Shown here: positions 1-4,228 of the stretch, piece by piece
How the letters are laid out: every line of letters starts with the position of its first letter
How positions within the stretch are numbered: position 1 is the stretch's first letter
IMG/VR virus record: IMGVR_UViG_2698536649_000009
DNA length: 4,687 nucleotides
Strand: one strand, 5' to 3'
DNA from: a virus
Taxonomy: Duplodnaviria > Heunggongvirae > Uroviricota > Caudoviricetes
The notes under the pieces: model-generated
The model's database searches: none
Seen by the model: the letters and a program-made list of their open reading frames with translations, nothing else
Told to the model about the DNA's origin: nothing
Position numbers and translations under genes: made by a program

Positions 1-1246
1 CATCTGCCATTGCGCAAGATGGTTGCGGTTTTTCTTCATCATTTTCTTCTTCTTCTGTTTCCTGCTTAGCAGACAGTTCGCGGTTAACTTCTTCCAGGAT
101 ATCTTTTTCCGGTGTATGTCGTGCAGCAGTGAGAGTTTCCTTGCTGGGGTTCTCGTGATCAGTCTCCGTTAAGTAGGCGTTGATATACCCCTGAAGGCGT
201 CCCGGGTAGTGATAAAACTCAGGGTGAGCGCTCCGGATAAGTGCAAAAATAGCGGCGCGGGAATAGTCCAGAATACCCGGGGTTGCGCGAAGTGCTGCGG
301 ACCATTCTTTGAACGGACTTTCTCTTTTCAGGACGATTTCTTTTGCGCGACGATAAACGCTGCCCGGAATTTCATAAATATTAAAATCCATCGGAAGTGT
401 GGCTGCTGCAATCTCCACATCCAGCGTATCGAAGGTGTGTACTAAATTCGGATTGCGATCGGTTTTGTTCCCGCCACCGGCATTTGCACCGGAAGCCGTA
501 CGGGTGATACGCGAAACACGATTTCCTTTCATCCACTCTTTTGTCAGCAGACCCCGATCAGTGTAGTCAGCGTCCAGGTATGCCTCGAAAAAAGCAGTTA
601 TCAGTCCCAGGTCTGAATTACCGGGATTAGGGAAAACTTTGTCAGTGTCGCGTACCAGTTTGTGAAGGTCGCGAATCTCCAGCGGGTCGAGCAGCTTTGT
701 TTTGTGAGAAATGGCCAGGGCAGTAACAGCCGGCAGTTCTTCCGCCCGTGCTATATGTAATGCCTGAAGTTCTTCCCGTGCAACGTGCGTTACTGGTTTT
801 TCGCTGCCGTGTTGCGCAAGCCAGCGAATGGGCAGCTCCTGACCAGAAACCGGCAGGAGCATATTCTCCTCAATCTCCGTCATGTCTTCGCCGTTGACGT
901 TGGTATTGTCAGTACTGGCTGGTTTCTCCTGCACGGAGGGAGAGGGCGCGATAAATACCATTGTAATGCCATCTTCCCCGCCTTTTTCGTATCGGTTGCA
1001 GAATTCGGTATCAAACACGCCTTCAGGTGGAAGGTCATTCACAACGGGTAAATGGACGCGAACGGGTTTTTTAAAGTCGTCTTCATCATAATCGTTGTCA
1101 TCCATTGCGGTAATGCAGCGGGAGATGGCAACAGATAATTTTTTTGCTGTAGTCCAGTAAAAACCACCTTTAATTCCCAGACGTTTTCTGACTTTGTCAT
1201 TTTTTGCTTCGCAATATAGCGCAAATTCTTCTTTATCAGTGCTCAT
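1..1246 (-). CDS. recE: Exodeoxyribonuclease VIII (RecE)-like protein, N-terminal 415 codons; gene continues beyond the left edge of the window
   Basis: Hand translation of the minus strand from ATG 1246-1244 is open with no stop down to position 1 (MSTDKEEFALYCEAKNDKVRKRLGIKGGFYWTTAK...NTNVNGEDMTEIEENMLLPVSGQELPIRWLAQHGSEKPVTHV...KVFPNPGNSDLGLITAFFEAYLDADYTDRGLLTKEWMKGNRVSRITRTASGANAGGG...DEEKPQPS). GAGG Shine-Dalgarno 7 nt upstream of the ATG. Several long segments match my recollection of E. coli RecE; this is memory, not a search. It was not in the ORF track because it runs off the window. Confidence 0.75.
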   Translation of the reverse strand, partial: MSTDKEEFALYCEAKNDKVRKRLGIKGGFYWTTAKKLSVAISRCITAMDDNDYDEDDFKKPVRVHLPVVNDLPPEGVFDTEFCNRYEKGGEDGITMVFIAPSPSVQEKPASTDNTNVNGEDMTEIEENMLLPVSGQELPIRWLAQHGSEKPVTHVAREELQALHIARAEELPAVTALAISHKTKLLDPLEIRDLHKLVRDTDKVFPNPGNSDLGLITAFFEAYLDADYTDRGLLTKEWMKGNRVSRITRTASGANAGGGNKTDRNPNLVHTFDTLDVEIAAATLPMDFNIYEIPGSVYRRAKEIVLKRESPFKEWSAALRATPGILDYSRAAIFALIRSAHPEFYHYPGRLQGYINAYLTETDHENPSKETLTAARHTPEKDILEEVNRELSAKQETEEEENDEEKPQPSCAMAD

Positions 1247-1338
1247 TGATAAACCTCATTACAGATTTAAGGGTGAACAAATCCCTGCCATTGCTGGCAT
1301 TTTTAATCCGTTGGTATGGTGTTAATATGGCTGGAGGG

Positions 1339-1527
1339 TTATCCAGCCGGTGTTTCGTTATTCAGGTACAGCGATACTTTTTTTACCGGGAGGCATTCAC
1401 CAGAAATTTTTTGCTCGTCTCTTGCCTGGAGGCAGGATTCTTTACTGGCATAAATTCCGGTAATCACATTCTGTGATTCACCCGTTATAAGAAAAACCGT
1501 CATCATCAGTGCAAATGCTGAAGTCAT
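1339..1527 (-). CDS. ydfD: YdfD-like small protein (62 aa) with N-terminal hydrophobic segment; putative membrane/lysis protein of the dicB operon
   Basis: ORF track 62 aa (MTSAFALMMTVFLITG...). GGAG Shine-Dalgarno 7 nt upstream of ATG 1527. ATGA overlap with the dicB stop (1524-1527), i.e. translational coupling. Position immediately after dicB matches the K-12 Qin dicB-ydfD arrangement as I recall it. Confidence 0.55.
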   Translation of the reverse strand: MTSAFALMMTVFLITGESQNVITGIYASKESCLQARDEQKISGECLPVKKVSLYLNNETPAG

Positions 1528-1712
1528 TGACGTTCTCCGAAAATACCAAGTTCAAGAAGAGCAATTCGGGAAAGTATGGAATTATCATTGAGCAGATAAG
1601 GCTCATATTTCCTCATGTTAATGGCATCTTCAGTAAACTCCCGGTTACTGAGCAGAACACCAATATCAAAACAACCTTCAGACGTATTAACGTTTGGTAA
1701 TAACGTTTCCAT
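1524..1712 (-). CDS. dicB: Cell-division inhibitor DicB (62 aa)
   Basis: ORF track product METLLPNVNTSEGCFDIGVLLSNREFTEDAINMRKYEPYLLNDNSILSRIALLELGIFGERQ. The N-terminus closely matches my recollection of E. coli K-12 DicB (MKTLLPNVNTSEGCFEIGV...FTEDAIN...), and the length is the same. GAGGA Shine-Dalgarno 7 nt upstream of ATG 1712. DicF lies immediately upstream, as in Qin. Confidence 0.85.
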   Translation of the reverse strand: METLLPNVNTSEGCFDIGVLLSNREFTEDAINMRKYEPYLLNDNSILSRIALLELGIFGERQ

Positions 1713-1803
1713 TATCGCGTCCTCAACAATGAATTTTGTGATGCAGTGCCTGGTGCCTCCAGGTGACGTTAACCAGTTAACAATTAACGAATCACTTTAA
1801 AAA

Positions 1804-1856
1804 GGGCGGCAGAGCAGCCACGGAGTAAAACTGATACCGCCAAACGTCACCAGAAA
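1804..1856 (-). ncRNA. dicF: DicF small regulatory RNA (53 nt) with downstream U-run (plus-strand A-run 1799-1803)
   Basis: Minus-strand sequence TTTCTGGTGACGTTTGGCGGTATCAGTTTTACTCCGTGGCTGCTCTGCCGCCC followed by TTTTT. This matches my recollection of K-12 DicF apart from possibly one base. GGCGG...CCGCC closes a terminator-like stem before the U-run. Correct synteny, just upstream of dicB. Confidence 0.8.
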
Positions 1857-2133
1857 ATTGATAACAGAGGGCGTTGCAGCGGGGTTGTCACTTAAGCGTA
1901 TGGTCAACCTGACAACCCGGTGTCCTCAATGGGGAAGGAATAACCCCGCCATACTTACCGCCGCGCCATTTCGCGGAGTGCCACAACCGGAAGCGCACGT
2001 TCGAAGAAATCTAACGACAAGCCTTCTAAGGGAAAGAGCTTCGCCGTACGCTTTCGCGTTATGCACTGACTTTTCAGGGAAATATCCTTTCAGTAAACTG
2101 TCAGTACCGGATTCTTATCCGTGTCCGGCGCAC

Positions 2134-2167
2134 GACCACACGTGACAGCGTGTTGGTCTCCATTTTT
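2134..2167 (+). terminator. Terminator-like hairpin: 9-bp stem with one bulge (GACCACACG / CGTGTTGGTC), 6-nt loop, then TCCATTTTT
   Basis: Inverted repeat 2134-2142 / 2149-2158 with T-run 2163-2167, read directly from the sequence. Sits 27 nt upstream of the 2194 start codon. On the minus strand it is part of the long dicF precursor leader instead. Confidence 0.3.
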
Positions 2168-2193
2168 AACCCAGAACCTCAATGGAGGATAAA

Positions 2194-2403
2194 ATGCCAA
2201 ACAAAAAAAGAAATCCGCTTATTGAAAAACAGATTGAATGCCTGGTAAATCAACTCAGGCAATCAGGGTTATTAAAAACTCATTCAGAGTTGAGGCTCAC
2301 AGAATCAGCATTCGACGATAAATTAAATAATGTCCTTTATAATGGCATTATTGATTTTAATCGTTCTGTTGGTCGCTGCGGCCCTGCTGGTGTTTCCTTA
2401 TAA
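2194..2403 (+). CDS. Hypothetical small protein (69 aa), convergent with the cargo gene
   Basis: ORF track 2182..2403; the second in-frame ATG at 2194 is preceded by a strong GGAGGA Shine-Dalgarno (2184-2189). A 70-codon open frame in an AT-rich segment with no competing minus-strand ORF. Product MPNKKRNPLIEKQIECLVNQLRQSGLLKTHSELRLTESAFDDKLNNVLYNGIIDFNRSVGRCGPAGVSL, not recognised. Confidence 0.45.
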   Translation: MPNKKRNPLIEKQIECLVNQLRQSGLLKTHSELRLTESAFDDKLNNVLYNGIIDFNRSVGRCGPAGVSL

Positions 2404-3042
2404 TTACCAGTCAATCCAGAGTGGACCGTGTTCAGCGTAAATATAACTGTACACATCCAGATTATATTTGTGGTCTGTTAAGAACAGGCCGCAAATACAT
2501 GCCGAAGCTTCCAGTGCAGCGGCTCTGTTACTGAATAACCATGTAGCAACATTCCAGCGTTTTTCTGCATCCCAGTCTTTCTCAAGGCCTGATACCATGA
2601 AGAAACCGTTAGTGTTGCCATCAAATAATTCTGTTTCCAAATTTTTAAGCAATGCCTGATGGACTCTTGCCAGGTATTCCGCCGGAATTTCGCCACGAAT
2701 TCTGATGAGATTGTCATAAACAAACATGTTCCCCGCATATGGCGATTTTTCTTTCTTGTTTTTTAAACCAGCATCATGAGCAAACTGATCAATTTCTTCT
2801 TCCGTTGGTTTCGTATTGATGTTTTGCGCTGTCGTTTCTGCAATTTTATTTGCCACACTCTCTGAGTCGTGTTTATTTATAGACGCACAGAAATACAATC
2901 CGGTAAACGCATCGCGCACATTACGAGCCATATTATCAGTGTCTTTTTTCGTTACCGATTCCAATTCAAGTTCGTTCAGACGATGACGAAGTGTGTGTGC
3001 TGCAATCTCCTGGATTGAAGGAGGTAAATCTTTAAATTCCAT
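2404..3042 (-). CDS. Hypothetical protein (212 aa), unrecognised cargo gene between ydfA-like and dicF; an alternative start at 3054 gives 216 aa
   Basis: Long minus-strand ORF (ORF track 2404..3054). The ATG at 3042 has a GAGG Shine-Dalgarno 6 nt upstream. The upstream ATG at 3054 overlaps the ydfA-like stop (minus-strand TGATG). Product MEFKDLPPSIQEIAAHTLRHRLNELELESV... has no motif I can assign; no YxDD, no obvious nuclease or NTPase signature. Confidence 0.8.
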   Translation of the reverse strand: MEFKDLPPSIQEIAAHTLRHRLNELELESVTKKDTDNMARNVRDAFTGLYFCASINKHDSESVANKIAETTAQNINTKPTEEEIDQFAHDAGLKNKKEKSPYAGNMFVYDNLIRIRGEIPAEYLARVHQALLKNLETELFDGNTNGFFMVSGLEKDWDAEKRWNVATWLFSNRAAALEASACICGLFLTDHKYNLDVYSYIYAEHGPLWIDW

Positions 3043-3053
3043 CGTCAACCTCA

Positions 3054-3206
3054 TCAGTCAGTGTTTCTGGCTAACCAGCGACGCGCGCCAGCTTCAGTTT
3101 TAAACGTTTTGCTTTTGGTATACGTCATCGCGGTGAACGTACCGTCCTGGTTGGGGAACACGCCACATACCAGAGATTCGTTGTTGCCAAGATTGAGCGT
3201 ATCCAT
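3054..3206 (-). CDS. ydfA: YdfA-like small protein (50 aa, DUF1391-type); the ORF track gives a longer 77-aa version starting at 3287
   Basis: MDTLNLGNNESLVCGVFPNQDGTFTAMTYTKSKTFKTEAGARRWLARNTD resembles my recollection of K-12 YdfA (about 51 aa). The internal ATG at 3206 has a GAGG Shine-Dalgarno 5 nt upstream. First gene downstream of the repressor, as ydfA follows dicA in Qin. Confidence 0.6.
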   Translation of the reverse strand: MDTLNLGNNESLVCGVFPNQDGTFTAMTYTKSKTFKTEAGARRWLARNTD

Positions 3207-3385
3207 GTTGACCTCATTTCCCCTTAACGCCGGGGTAGCGGAACAAAAACCTGCTGCATAGTTATTAAAGTTGAACCCTGCCGTCATGTTCTTACGCCTC
3301 GGGCTGGCTACTTAACCCCTGACCACTGCCTGGTAACTCGAAGTATTGCCCTGCATTCTGTGGGGCGGGGTGAGGGAATGAATGA

Positions 3386-3414
3386 AGTTTAGAAAAACGA
3401 ACATTTAAGGTCAA
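3386..3414 (-). promoter_or_regulatory. Candidate sigma70 promoter for the leftward ydfA-like/dicB-type operon: -35 TTGACC, 17-bp spacer, -10 TAAACT on the minus strand
   Basis: Read directly from the sequence: plus-strand GGTCAA at 3409-3414 and AGTTTA at 3386-3391. Position is analogous to dicBp between dicA and ydfA. Not validated. Confidence 0.3.
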
Positions 3415-3434
3415 TGTTTTTTTATCAAAACATT
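3413..3434. promoter_or_regulatory. Operator-like palindrome AATGTTTT-TTTATC-AAAACATT (core GTTTT-N6-AAAAC at 3416-3431) overlapping the -35 of the candidate promoter
   Basis: Perfect 8-bp inverted arms read from the sequence. Same GTTTT-N6-AAAAC architecture as the sites in the repressor/cro intergenic region. Confidence 0.4.
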
Positions 3435-3498
3435 TTAAGCAGGCAGCTGTTACGCCATCACTACGATGGCATACAGTTAATCAAATAGATGAGGTTGG

Positions 3499-4137
3499 TT
3501 AAATATCTTGTTGAATTTTAAAGCATACTCCCAATATGCAAGATAGATCATCCAGCATAATTGAAGGGTAGCGAGGATTCGTGGGGACTAAAAGAATATC
3601 CGGCCCTTCTATCTCCAGTTTGCGAATGACAGGCGTTGTGGTCCCTTTGGGTAAGGCAAGGACAATATTTCCTGGTTGTACGATTCGATCGGGATCAACA
3701 AAAACTGTTGAACCATTTGGGATGGAAACTCCACCACCAGATGTCGACATACTGTCACTCTCTAGAACAACAGCAAAGGTATTGGCCGGGATTTCTCCGA
3801 CAAGCTGCACACAAGAGGTTATTGAGGAATTTTTCATATAATCACTCCAGCTTGCTGCCTGCTGAAGTGATAGTAGCGGAACCGTTTTTATCGGCGGTAA
3901 AGATAGATCAAGCGAATCACCTGTATTTAACTCTCCTCCATTAAGAAGCCAATTTTCGTTTACTTTCAATATCTTTGCCAGTGAACTTATGTAACGCGAG
4001 GACGGCGCTCCTCCACCGTTCATCCATTGACTTACGGAGCCTTTTGATGCGCCAGTGGCATTGACAAGGTCTTTGCCTTTCAAGTTTAGCGCATGCATAC
4101 GTTGGGTTATGCGTTCAGATATTGTTTGCTTGTTCAT
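3499..4137 (-). CDS. CI/LexA-type prophage repressor: N-terminal XRE helix-turn-helix plus C-terminal S24 autopeptidase domain (212 aa)
   Basis: ORF track 212 aa. HTH segment LKGKDLVNATGASKGSVSQWMNGG. S24 catalytic motifs LESDSMSTSGG (Ser, matching the G-D/E-SM pattern of LexA, UmuD and lambda CI) and VIRKLEIEG (Lys). Divergent from a Cro-like gene. No Shine-Dalgarno upstream of the ATG. Confidence 0.9.
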   Translation of the reverse strand: MNKQTISERITQRMHALNLKGKDLVNATGASKGSVSQWMNGGGAPSSRYISSLAKILKVNENWLLNGGELNTGDSLDLSLPPIKTVPLLSLQQAASWSDYMKNSSITSCVQLVGEIPANTFAVVLESDSMSTSGGGVSIPNGSTVFVDPDRIVQPGNIVLALPKGTTTPVIRKLEIEGPDILLVPTNPRYPSIMLDDLSCILGVCFKIQQDI

Positions 4138-4199
4138 GTTTTGATTTTAAAACACAGATGGTTTTGTTTCTTGACTTTCTTTGGTTTTGATTATTAAAC
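4138..4199. promoter_or_regulatory. Immunity-switch operator/promoter region: GTTTTG-initiated repeats at 4138, 4161 and 4184 (23-bp periodicity); palindromic 16-bp sites R1 GTTTT-GATTTT-AAAAC (4138-4153) and R3 GTTTT-GATTAT-TAAAC (4184-4199)
   Basis: Repeats read directly from the sequence; the 23-bp spacing is like lambda OR1-OR2-OR3. Candidate rightward promoter TTGACT (4171-4176), 18-bp spacer, TAAACT (4195-4200). Candidate leftward -10 TAAAAT (plus 4144-4149) placed for a leaderless repressor transcript. Confidence 0.5.
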
Positions 4200-4228
4200 T
4201 TTTGGCGTTCAGTTTTATGGAGCGACTC

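Follow-up and report, generated by a model that had tools for sequence, protein, structure and literature searches.

A convergent gene pair between ydfA and dicF

We analysed a 4,687-nt stretch of DNA from a virus of the class Caudoviricetes (IMG/VR record IMGVR_UViG_2698536649_000009), hereafter called the window. It represents the part of a Rac/Qin-like lambdoid prophage of Escherichia coli that comprises the immunity and early-left region. Our subject is a minus-strand gene for a 212-residue protein, p212, which follows a ydfA-like gene in a dicB-type operon. An initial annotation of the window had singled out the open reading frame (ORF) at 2404-3054 as an unrecognised protein gene and had treated it as a single cargo gene. 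The existence of the gene is borne out by its frame, by a GAGG Shine-Dalgarno motif and by purifying selection. Its description as a lone gene had to be given up, as p212 belongs to a conserved two-gene module whose second member, p69, lies on the opposite strand. The pair comprises the following features.

2404..3042, minus strand: p212, gene for a 212-residue protein (stop 2404-2406, start ATG 3040-3042; PHROG 2151, "Ybl81", WP_000394548.1)
2863..3042, minus strand: N-terminal domain of p212 (residues 1-60), predicted helical and exchangeable, with a recombination breakpoint near residue 51
2752..2862, minus strand: acidic linker of p212 (residues 61-97), with insertions and deletions among alleles, low confidence or disorder in the structural model and a relaxed ratio of nonsynonymous to synonymous substitution rates (dN/dS)
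2407..2751, minus strand: conserved C-domain of p212 (residues 98-212), strand-strand-helix-strand-strand-helix-strand, with the motifs MFVYDxLIxIxGxIPxxY and FDGxxNG
2194..2403, plus strand: p69, convergent gene for a basic 69-residue protein (PHROG 4274, similar to WP_001133037.1), annotated by the NCBI Prokaryotic Genome Annotation Pipeline (PGAP)
2184..2188, plus strand: GGAGG Shine-Dalgarno motif of p69, 5 nt ahead of its ATG

Start codon and selection on p212

The open frame encodes 216 residues from its first ATG (3052-3054), which overlaps the upstream ORF's stop codon in the sequence TGATG, and 212 residues from its second ATG (3040-3042), which is preceded at a distance of 6 nt by GAGG (3049-3052). 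The 212-position profile of PHROG 2151 starts at residue 5 of the longer frame and matches it over its full length (E 1.9e-147, residues 5-216 against profile positions 1-212), the PGAP call for WP_000394548.1 is likewise 212 residues long, and MEFKDLP forms the N-terminus of all p212 homologues. Because profile, PGAP call and every homologue start at MEFKDLP, the 212-residue form is the product, and these sequence comparisons identify the second ATG as the true start. Translational coupling to the ydfA-like gene had been proposed from the TGATG overlap and the GAGG motif; both are present, but the coupling is probably unused because the p212 start is the second ATG, 9 nt past the ydfA stop. 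The tight junction is also local to the window allele, and elsewhere ydfB/ydfC-like genes intervene.

Compared with divergent alleles, the whole gene shows a dN/dS of 0.19-0.33, which is distributed unevenly over its parts, with 0.31-0.66 for the N-terminal 60 residues, 0.34-0.97 for residues 61-97 and 0.14-0.18 for residues 98-212. Purifying selection, with a dN/dS of about 0.15 in the C-domain, shows that p212 is a real gene. That the frame arose by chance or is decaying in a cryptic prophage might be suspected from the annotation as hypothetical protein only and from alleles that are truncated or frameshifted, but a dN/dS well below 1 already refutes this idea. A length and motifs that are conserved from Escherichia to Salmonella, a good Shine-Dalgarno motif and the exact sequence on 993 contigs also speak against it, and we give it practically no credence. 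A set of 5.8 billion proteins contained 153 homologues of p212. The best 19-residue hydropathy value of the protein is 1.16.

Linkage of p69 to the C-domain

The stop codon of p69 (2401-2403) abuts that of p212 (2404-2406), so that TAA is directly followed by TTA. The dN/dS of p69 is 0.24-0.29 in its own frame, compared with about 1 in both other forward frames, and the frames of the reverse complement are interrupted by stop codons; judged from this substitution pattern, p69 is a real gene. Its distribution follows that of the p212 C-domain closely. Among 5426 complete E. coli genomes, C-domain DNA was found in 599 (750 places) and p69 DNA in 596 (743 places), and both genes, with their stops abutting, are present in about 70 of the 79 IMG/VR loci, the remainder being mostly cut by contig ends. 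Moreover, two classes of C-domain alleles (98-100% and about 74-84% identical to the window) co-segregate with two classes of p69 alleles, whereas the N-domain and ydfA alleles of the IMG/VR loci reassort freely.

The pairing extends to Salmonella, where each of the C-domain proteins P0153, P0139 and P0177 faces a convergent p69 homologue of 64-69 residues, with 3′ ends overlapping by 11-53 nt. The homologue at locus L087 is 51% identical to the p69 of the window, and the motifs KQIECxxxQLxxSGLLK and RRxPAGxxL are common to all Salmonella homologues. These pairs lie behind a P2-type Int-C-Cox switch and not behind a lambda-type one. In total, the p69 family comprises 36 proteins, all from Escherichia or Salmonella where the source organism is given, and is thus as narrow as the C-domain family.

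The structural model of p69 (predicted local distance difference test, pLDDT, of 71) consists of a two-helix hairpin and a disordered basic tail, and has no informative structural neighbours. With a best 19-residue hydropathy of 0.39 and no hydrophobic segment, p69 is predicted to be soluble. The isoelectric points of p69 (9.2) and of the C-domain (4.9) correspond to complementary charges. At codon 62 of p69 (2377-2379), within the conserved GRRGPAG tail, the window encodes Cys and most alleles encode Arg; the exact Cys-62 variant was found on 88 contigs. A hydrophobic 36-residue ORF that spans the 3′ ends of both genes (2330-2440, plus strand; MSFIMALLILIVLLVAAALLVF...) was considered as a small-toxin candidate and rejected, since its alternate-frame dN/dS is about 1, and it probably arose by chance.

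The pair occupies a variable slot

The K-12 gene order ydfA-ydfB-ydfC-dicF-dicB-ydfD, which had been given for comparison in the initial annotation, is correct, and the suggestion that the gene is a variable insert could be substantiated. High homology between the Qin prophage of K-12 and the window runs through ydfA and resumes from about position 2135 through the dicF leader, dicF and dicB, and the slot in between is filled by ydfB and ydfC in K-12 and by p212 and p69 in the window. The same slot carries an N-fragment pseudogene and a different plus-strand ORF in ATCC 25922, a 122-residue N-domain protein in strain 88-3493, and ydfB, a ydfC-like gene and the cassette in STEC308. Some part of the 4.7-kb window was matched in 4774 of the 5426 complete E. 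coli genomes, and the cassette was present in about 600 (about 11%). These carriers, about one in nine of the complete genomes, are mostly Shiga toxin-producing E. coli (STEC) of serogroups O157, O121, O145, O111 and O103. In 50,697 sequenced phage genomes we found no full-length p212, C-domain or p69, and only relatives of the N-domain. The view that p212 and p69 form a swappable or mobile two-gene accessory cassette is therefore well supported as far as variable cargo is concerned.

The C-domain is the conserved unit of p212

An alignment of 21 homologues showed two very different types of N-domain, a linker with insertions and deletions, and an almost invariant C-terminal half. The AlphaFold2 model of p212 (mean pLDDT 65) has helices at residues 8-24, 32-55 and 60-71, disorder at 73-99 and then the strand-strand-helix-strand-strand-helix-strand domain, in which the pLDDT averaged over 10-residue steps lies between 53 and 84 as far as residue 200 and is low for the final twelve residues. 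An exhaustive profile search of 1.84 billion representatives matched just 53 proteins, most of which align to residues 1 to about 55-90 alone and then continue with unrelated C-termini. Among these N-domain relatives are a 147-residue protein that PA2 and other Stx phages encode in their early-left block, on the recT/exo side, and the 122-residue protein that occupies the same slot in strain 88-3493. At the DNA level, many cassette matches in E. coli genomes cover only the first ~51 codons, at 96-97% identity, and diverge thereafter. Since the N-only matches continue with unrelated C-termini and the DNA breaks at ~51 codons, the N-domain is a separately exchangeable module. The conserved unit of the family is the alpha/beta C-domain of ~115 residues rather than the whole of p212.

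Distant relatives of the C-domain occur in Salmonella only, namely P0153, P0139, P0177 and their neighbours, which carry a different N-terminal domain and are 34-38% identical by BLAST and 28-31% in the alignment. In P0139 (locus L088, 5001-5861) a CI-type helix-turn-helix (HTH; Pfam HTH_3, E 8e-6) is inserted just ahead of the C-domain; this HTH is 42% identical to that of the window's own repressor type, and the host prophage uses a P2-type C/Cox switch.

Such a fusion raises the question of whether p212 might be a regulator of lysis-lysogeny or early expression (an anti-repressor, a CII/CIII-like factor or a decoy) in which the C-domain would serve oligomerisation or sensing. The presence of a repressor-type HTH in the P0139 relative would fit, as would the gene's position, which is always promoter-proximal and second after YdfA or Cox. 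However, p212 itself has no HTH recognisable with Pfam and thus no recognisable DNA-binding domain, its fold matches are generic, and the slot is dispensable: most dicBF operons lack p212, which argues against a core regulatory role. We therefore consider a regulator quite unlikely.

Family and fold searches

As the initial annotation had supposed, p212 falls into no known family: searches of Pfam, NCBIfam, PADLOC and the PDB returned no match, and PHROG 2151 has no assigned function. Specifically, p212, p69 and the C-domain alignment gave nothing significant against Pfam, NCBIfam and PADLOC; the defence models of PADLOC-DB 2.0 produced zero matches at E <= 1 for p212, p69 and the ydfA-like protein; sequence and profile searches of the PDB found no match; and the PHROGs matches were to function-unassigned families only (PHROG 2151 for p212, PHROG 4274 for p69). 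A scan of GTDB species-representative genomes revealed no relative. With Foldseek, the p212 model retrieved from viral models (BFVD) small Prp/YsxB "cysteine protease" and SUI1-like proteins at E values of about 1e-3 to 1e-2 and template modelling (TM) scores of 0.2-0.45. Ferredoxin-like/ACT-like sandwich, Prp (YsxB) and SUI1-like domains have no sequence relation to p212, and their TM-scores are only 0.2-0.45. A Prp/YsxB-like cysteine protease (Foldseek E about 5e-3, TM 0.4) could be excluded, since the alignment of E. coli and Salmonella C-domains contains no invariant His or Cys.

A literature search on Ybl81, its WP accessions and DUF1391 found nothing relevant; the svsR paper and a UTI89 filamentation screen deal with other loci. 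The family is thus already in the databases as hypothetical proteins, and what is new is its domain architecture, its conserved partner and the parallel to the sieB slot described below.

The operon and its control

Upstream and downstream of the pair, the window contains the following features.

3386..3414, minus strand: PL/dicBp-type sigma-70 promoter-like site (TTGACC-17-TAAACT) upstream of the ydfA-like gene
3415-3433, 4136-4154 and 4184-4202: candidate operator palindromes of the GTTTTGAT(N)AAAAC type, the first at the operon promoter and the other two between repressor and cro
3499..4137, minus strand: 212-residue repressor with HTH and S24 (LexA/CI-type) domains
3054..3206, minus strand: ydfA-like DUF1391 gene, 50 residues by PGAP (Pfam E 1.2e-29), immediately upstream of p212
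1804..1855, minus strand: dicF, a small RNA (sRNA; Rfam 75 bits)
1524..1712, minus strand: dicB (Pfam DicB, E 6e-37)
1339-1527, minus strand: ydfD-like gene (DUF1482; Pfam E 3e-15)
Downstream of the ydfD-like gene, minus strand: start only of a RecE-type exonuclease gene

Genes for a P22-Cro-like and a YdaT-like protein are directed rightwards. With its promoter-like site, a DUF1391 gene in first position, and dicF, dicB and the ydfD-like gene downstream on the same strand, the operon has the composition of a dicBF-type early-left operon. In K-12, dicBp is controlled by DicA and DicF is processed from a transcript that starts upstream of ydfA (PMC10448788). Because the palindrome at the operon promoter recurs twice between repressor and cro, control of the operon by the adjacent repressor is most likely. 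No promoter of its own was found for p212; as a gene downstream of a repressor-controlled PL-type promoter, p212 would be an early-lytic gene and should be silent in the lysogen. No terminator was seen between p212 and dicF. As DicF in K-12 is cut from a transcript that begins upstream of ydfA, a DicF/DicB transcript of the window must hold the full antisense of p69.

This arrangement bears on the role that had initially been proposed for p212. Lambda rexAB and lambda sieB are expressed in the lysogen, and p212 had been likened to lambda rexAB and Rac sieB as exclusion or defence cargo; the comparison is misplaced for a gene that lies behind a repressed PL-type promoter with an operator copy at 3415-3433. 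In a related form, the proposal of defence cargo would make the pair a defence or toxin-antitoxin-type system that is expressed in the lysogen, with both genes active in the prophage. Exclusion genes are indeed frequent in repressor-proximal slots of lambdoid prophages (lambda rexAB, sieB), and for the sieB gene of P22 expression in the prophage state is documented (PMC10883804). The combination of a small basic with a larger acidic protein, and the occurrence of the module in prophages of 11% of E. coli genomes and in 0 of 50,697 sequenced phage genomes, would also agree with such a system. Nevertheless, neither protein is matched by a PADLOC model and p212 sits behind the repressed promoter with none of its own. 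The convergent layout is atypical for a type II toxin-antitoxin system, no toxin-antitoxin family was found in Pfam or NCBIfam, and either gene can be lost alone. A lysogen-expressed system of this kind appears distinctly improbable.

RNA structures between p69 and dicF

Three hairpins (2107-2187) occupy the stretch that separates the start of p69 from the conserved dicF leader, at the 5′ edge of the latter.

2107-2128: hairpin H1, invariant
2134-2158: hairpin H2, with different sequences in E. coli, K-12 and Salmonella and two pairs changed on both sides
2158-2163 paired with 2182-2187: hairpin H3, which on the plus strand pairs with the p69 Shine-Dalgarno motif

Among five sequences, H3 is broken only in K-12, which lacks p69. 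The compensatory changes in H2 and the tie between H3 and the presence of p69 are suggestive only at this sample size (n=5 sequences). By eye only, weaker -10-like elements can be discerned just upstream of H1.

A non-coding dicF leader of ~300 nt (1856-2140, as minus-strand RNA; L088 6046-6480; L092 5797-6220) is conserved from E. coli to Salmonella prophages with P2-type immunity, to a higher degree than the protein genes beside it. Salmonella has, in place of the DicF part, a different hairpin followed by a U-run, for which Rfam gives no DicF match. The leader thus resembles a common platform for sRNA precursors, with 3′ sRNAs that can be exchanged. It shows no similarity to the early-left regions of Rac or lambda. 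In another Salmonella prophage (L091, 7582-7669), a C4 antisense RNA of the P1/P4 immunity type (Rfam 76.8 bits) is encoded a few genes downstream of the module.

Parallels to the sieB slot

The closest structural parallels to the pair are found around sieB. In lambda, the stops of N (35037) and sieB (35036) abut in convergent orientation, as those of p212 and p69 do. In Rac, the ydfA homologue ydaF (DUF1391) is convergent with sieB, with a 4-nt overlap that recalls the p212/p69 layout, and is followed by the sRNA kilS and the division inhibitor kilR, to which dicF and dicB correspond in the window. The Rac-type DUF1391/sieB layout is also present in Sakai Sp10, which lacks the p212/p69 cassette. 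Since p69 has the position and the orientation of sieB, it is p69 and not p212 that is the sieB-like gene, and the assignment to a SieB-type slot is one of position and orientation only; p212 is unrelated to N and YdaF.

By analogy, sieB-esc-sas of P22 would be the closest worked precedent. As reported for P22, sieB is expressed from the prophage (PMC10883804). The K-12 genes ydfB and ydfC share with the pair the slot between ydfA and the dicF leader, the operon and a function that is likewise unknown (PMC5069750). They differ in that both lie on the operon strand and neither is similar in sequence to p212 or p69, and in some loci they coexist with the cassette instead of being replaced by it. 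BstA/aba and lambda RexAB are, like the pair, accessory genes beside the immunity region of lambdoid prophages, and their logic, in which a prophage-state effector is combined with a means of protecting the lytic growth of the phage itself (PMC8585504), would be similar as well. BstA and RexAB, however, are expressed in the lysogen and are co-directional with the repressor, and they have no homology to p212 or p69.

A possible switch between prophage and induced state

Drawing on the analogy with sieB and its esc and sas elements, we tentatively rate highest, although as less likely than not, the possibility that p212 and p69 are a switch pair for the prophage and the induced state, of the type that combines exclusion with self-immunity. 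In the case of P22, Ranade and Poteete (1993) reportedly found two agents that switch the prophage-expressed sieB, an antisense RNA processed from the PL transcript and the Esc product. From the layout of the window, a corresponding sequence of events would run as follows. In the lysogen, the S24 repressor would shut the operon promoter and p212 would not be made, and p69 could be made from a promoter of its own on the opposite strand, behind leader hairpins of which one might mask its Shine-Dalgarno motif. Upon induction, leftward transcription would yield p212, and on its way to dicF and dicB the transcript would pass through p69 in antisense and might silence it by transcriptional interference or RNA pairing. 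The C-domain of p212 could then, more speculatively, bind, neutralise or modulate p69 or a target of p69, and the N-terminal domain would act as a separately exchangeable adaptor. In its most general form, this proposal describes a previously unrecognised two-component prophage conflict module, consisting of a small prophage-state protein and an induction-state partner with a new alpha/beta domain, joined in a convergent switch at the early promoter and retargeted by N-terminal adaptors; that the pair represents such an exclusion-with-self-immunity or abortive-infection family, enriched in STEC prophages, seems unlikely to us.

In favour of a switch pair are the purifying selection on both genes, their tight linkage with co-segregating alleles, the pairing kept in Salmonella, the convergent layout known from lambda and Rac, the operator-like palindrome at the operon promoter, the lack of a terminator ahead of dicF, the strong Shine-Dalgarno motif of p69 with the hairpin that pairs with it, and the complementary charges. 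Several observations weigh against it. p69 is absent in L070, L080 and L084 while p212 is intact, and STEC308, conversely, has a disrupted p212 and an intact p69; because each gene persists without the other, the two are strongly linked but not mutually addictive. No convincing sigma-70 promoter was found for p69, the sole consensus match on the plus strand overlapping its ATG. p69 is unlike SieB in that it has no sequence or Pfam similarity to it and no membrane segment, and the models of p212 and p69 are of moderate quality only (pLDDT 65 and 71) and matched nothing specific. Finally, p212 and p69 could be linked through common descent of a small mosaic block instead of joint function.

The last point leads to the alternative that p212 works on its own as an early host-takeover or anti-defence protein, similar to Ral, Gam, Kil or DicB, which would act on a host or competitor target after induction, and that p69 is an unrelated hitch-hiker in the mosaic block. 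p212 shares its repressor-controlled early operon with DicF, DicB, a DUF1482 YdfD-like lysis protein and a RecE-type exonuclease, its N-domain is common to dozens of small early-operon proteins, including one from the early-left block of the Stx phage PA2, and the three loci with p212 alone would be expected. The almost one-to-one occurrence of C-domain and p69 in E. coli would not be expected from a hitch-hiker, nor would a pairing that is kept at about 34-38% identity in the different immunity context of Salmonella. In addition, no similarity to known anti-defence or takeover proteins was found in Pfam, PHROGs, NCBIfam, PADLOC or with Foldseek. We regard a stand-alone function of p212 as the main rival, only slightly less probable than a switch pair.

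If p212 and p69 do form a switchable exclusion/immunity or regulatory module, they would extend the list of prophage conflict systems by a new protein domain and a new small partner, and the module would affect the production of DicF and DicB in pathogenic strains, since p69 lies in the path of the operon transcript. If p212 is just another accessory gene of unknown role, the gain is smaller; p212 and 2194-2403 should in that case be studied together, with the C-domain as the conserved unit.

Further observations

Where p69 is missing, the opposite-strand slot contains a different convergent ORF (L084, 4799-5557, minus strand; also L070 and L080). In L084, p69 has been deleted except for its Shine-Dalgarno motif and first codons, this convergent ORF has been inserted and p212 is intact. 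The replacement ORF encodes a coiled-coil region and CxxC...CxxC motifs and is about 170 residues long from a plausible internal start. Opposite-strand genes thus appear to be acquired recurrently at the p69 position.

Between the dicF terminator and dicB, K-12 and all near-identical E. coli records contain 83 bp that are missing from the window (at 1789/1790); elsewhere the window matches O121/O157 prophages at 100% identity. Either a rare deletion in nature or an artefact accounts for the gap. The missing spacer is presumably where the longer DicF 3′ end made by RNase III lies. Furthermore, only the C-terminal 112 residues of the repressor (3499-3837) are called in PGAP/RefSeq, as "LexA family protein", despite an uninterrupted 212-residue repressor ORF, and this annotation is probably a start-site miscall.

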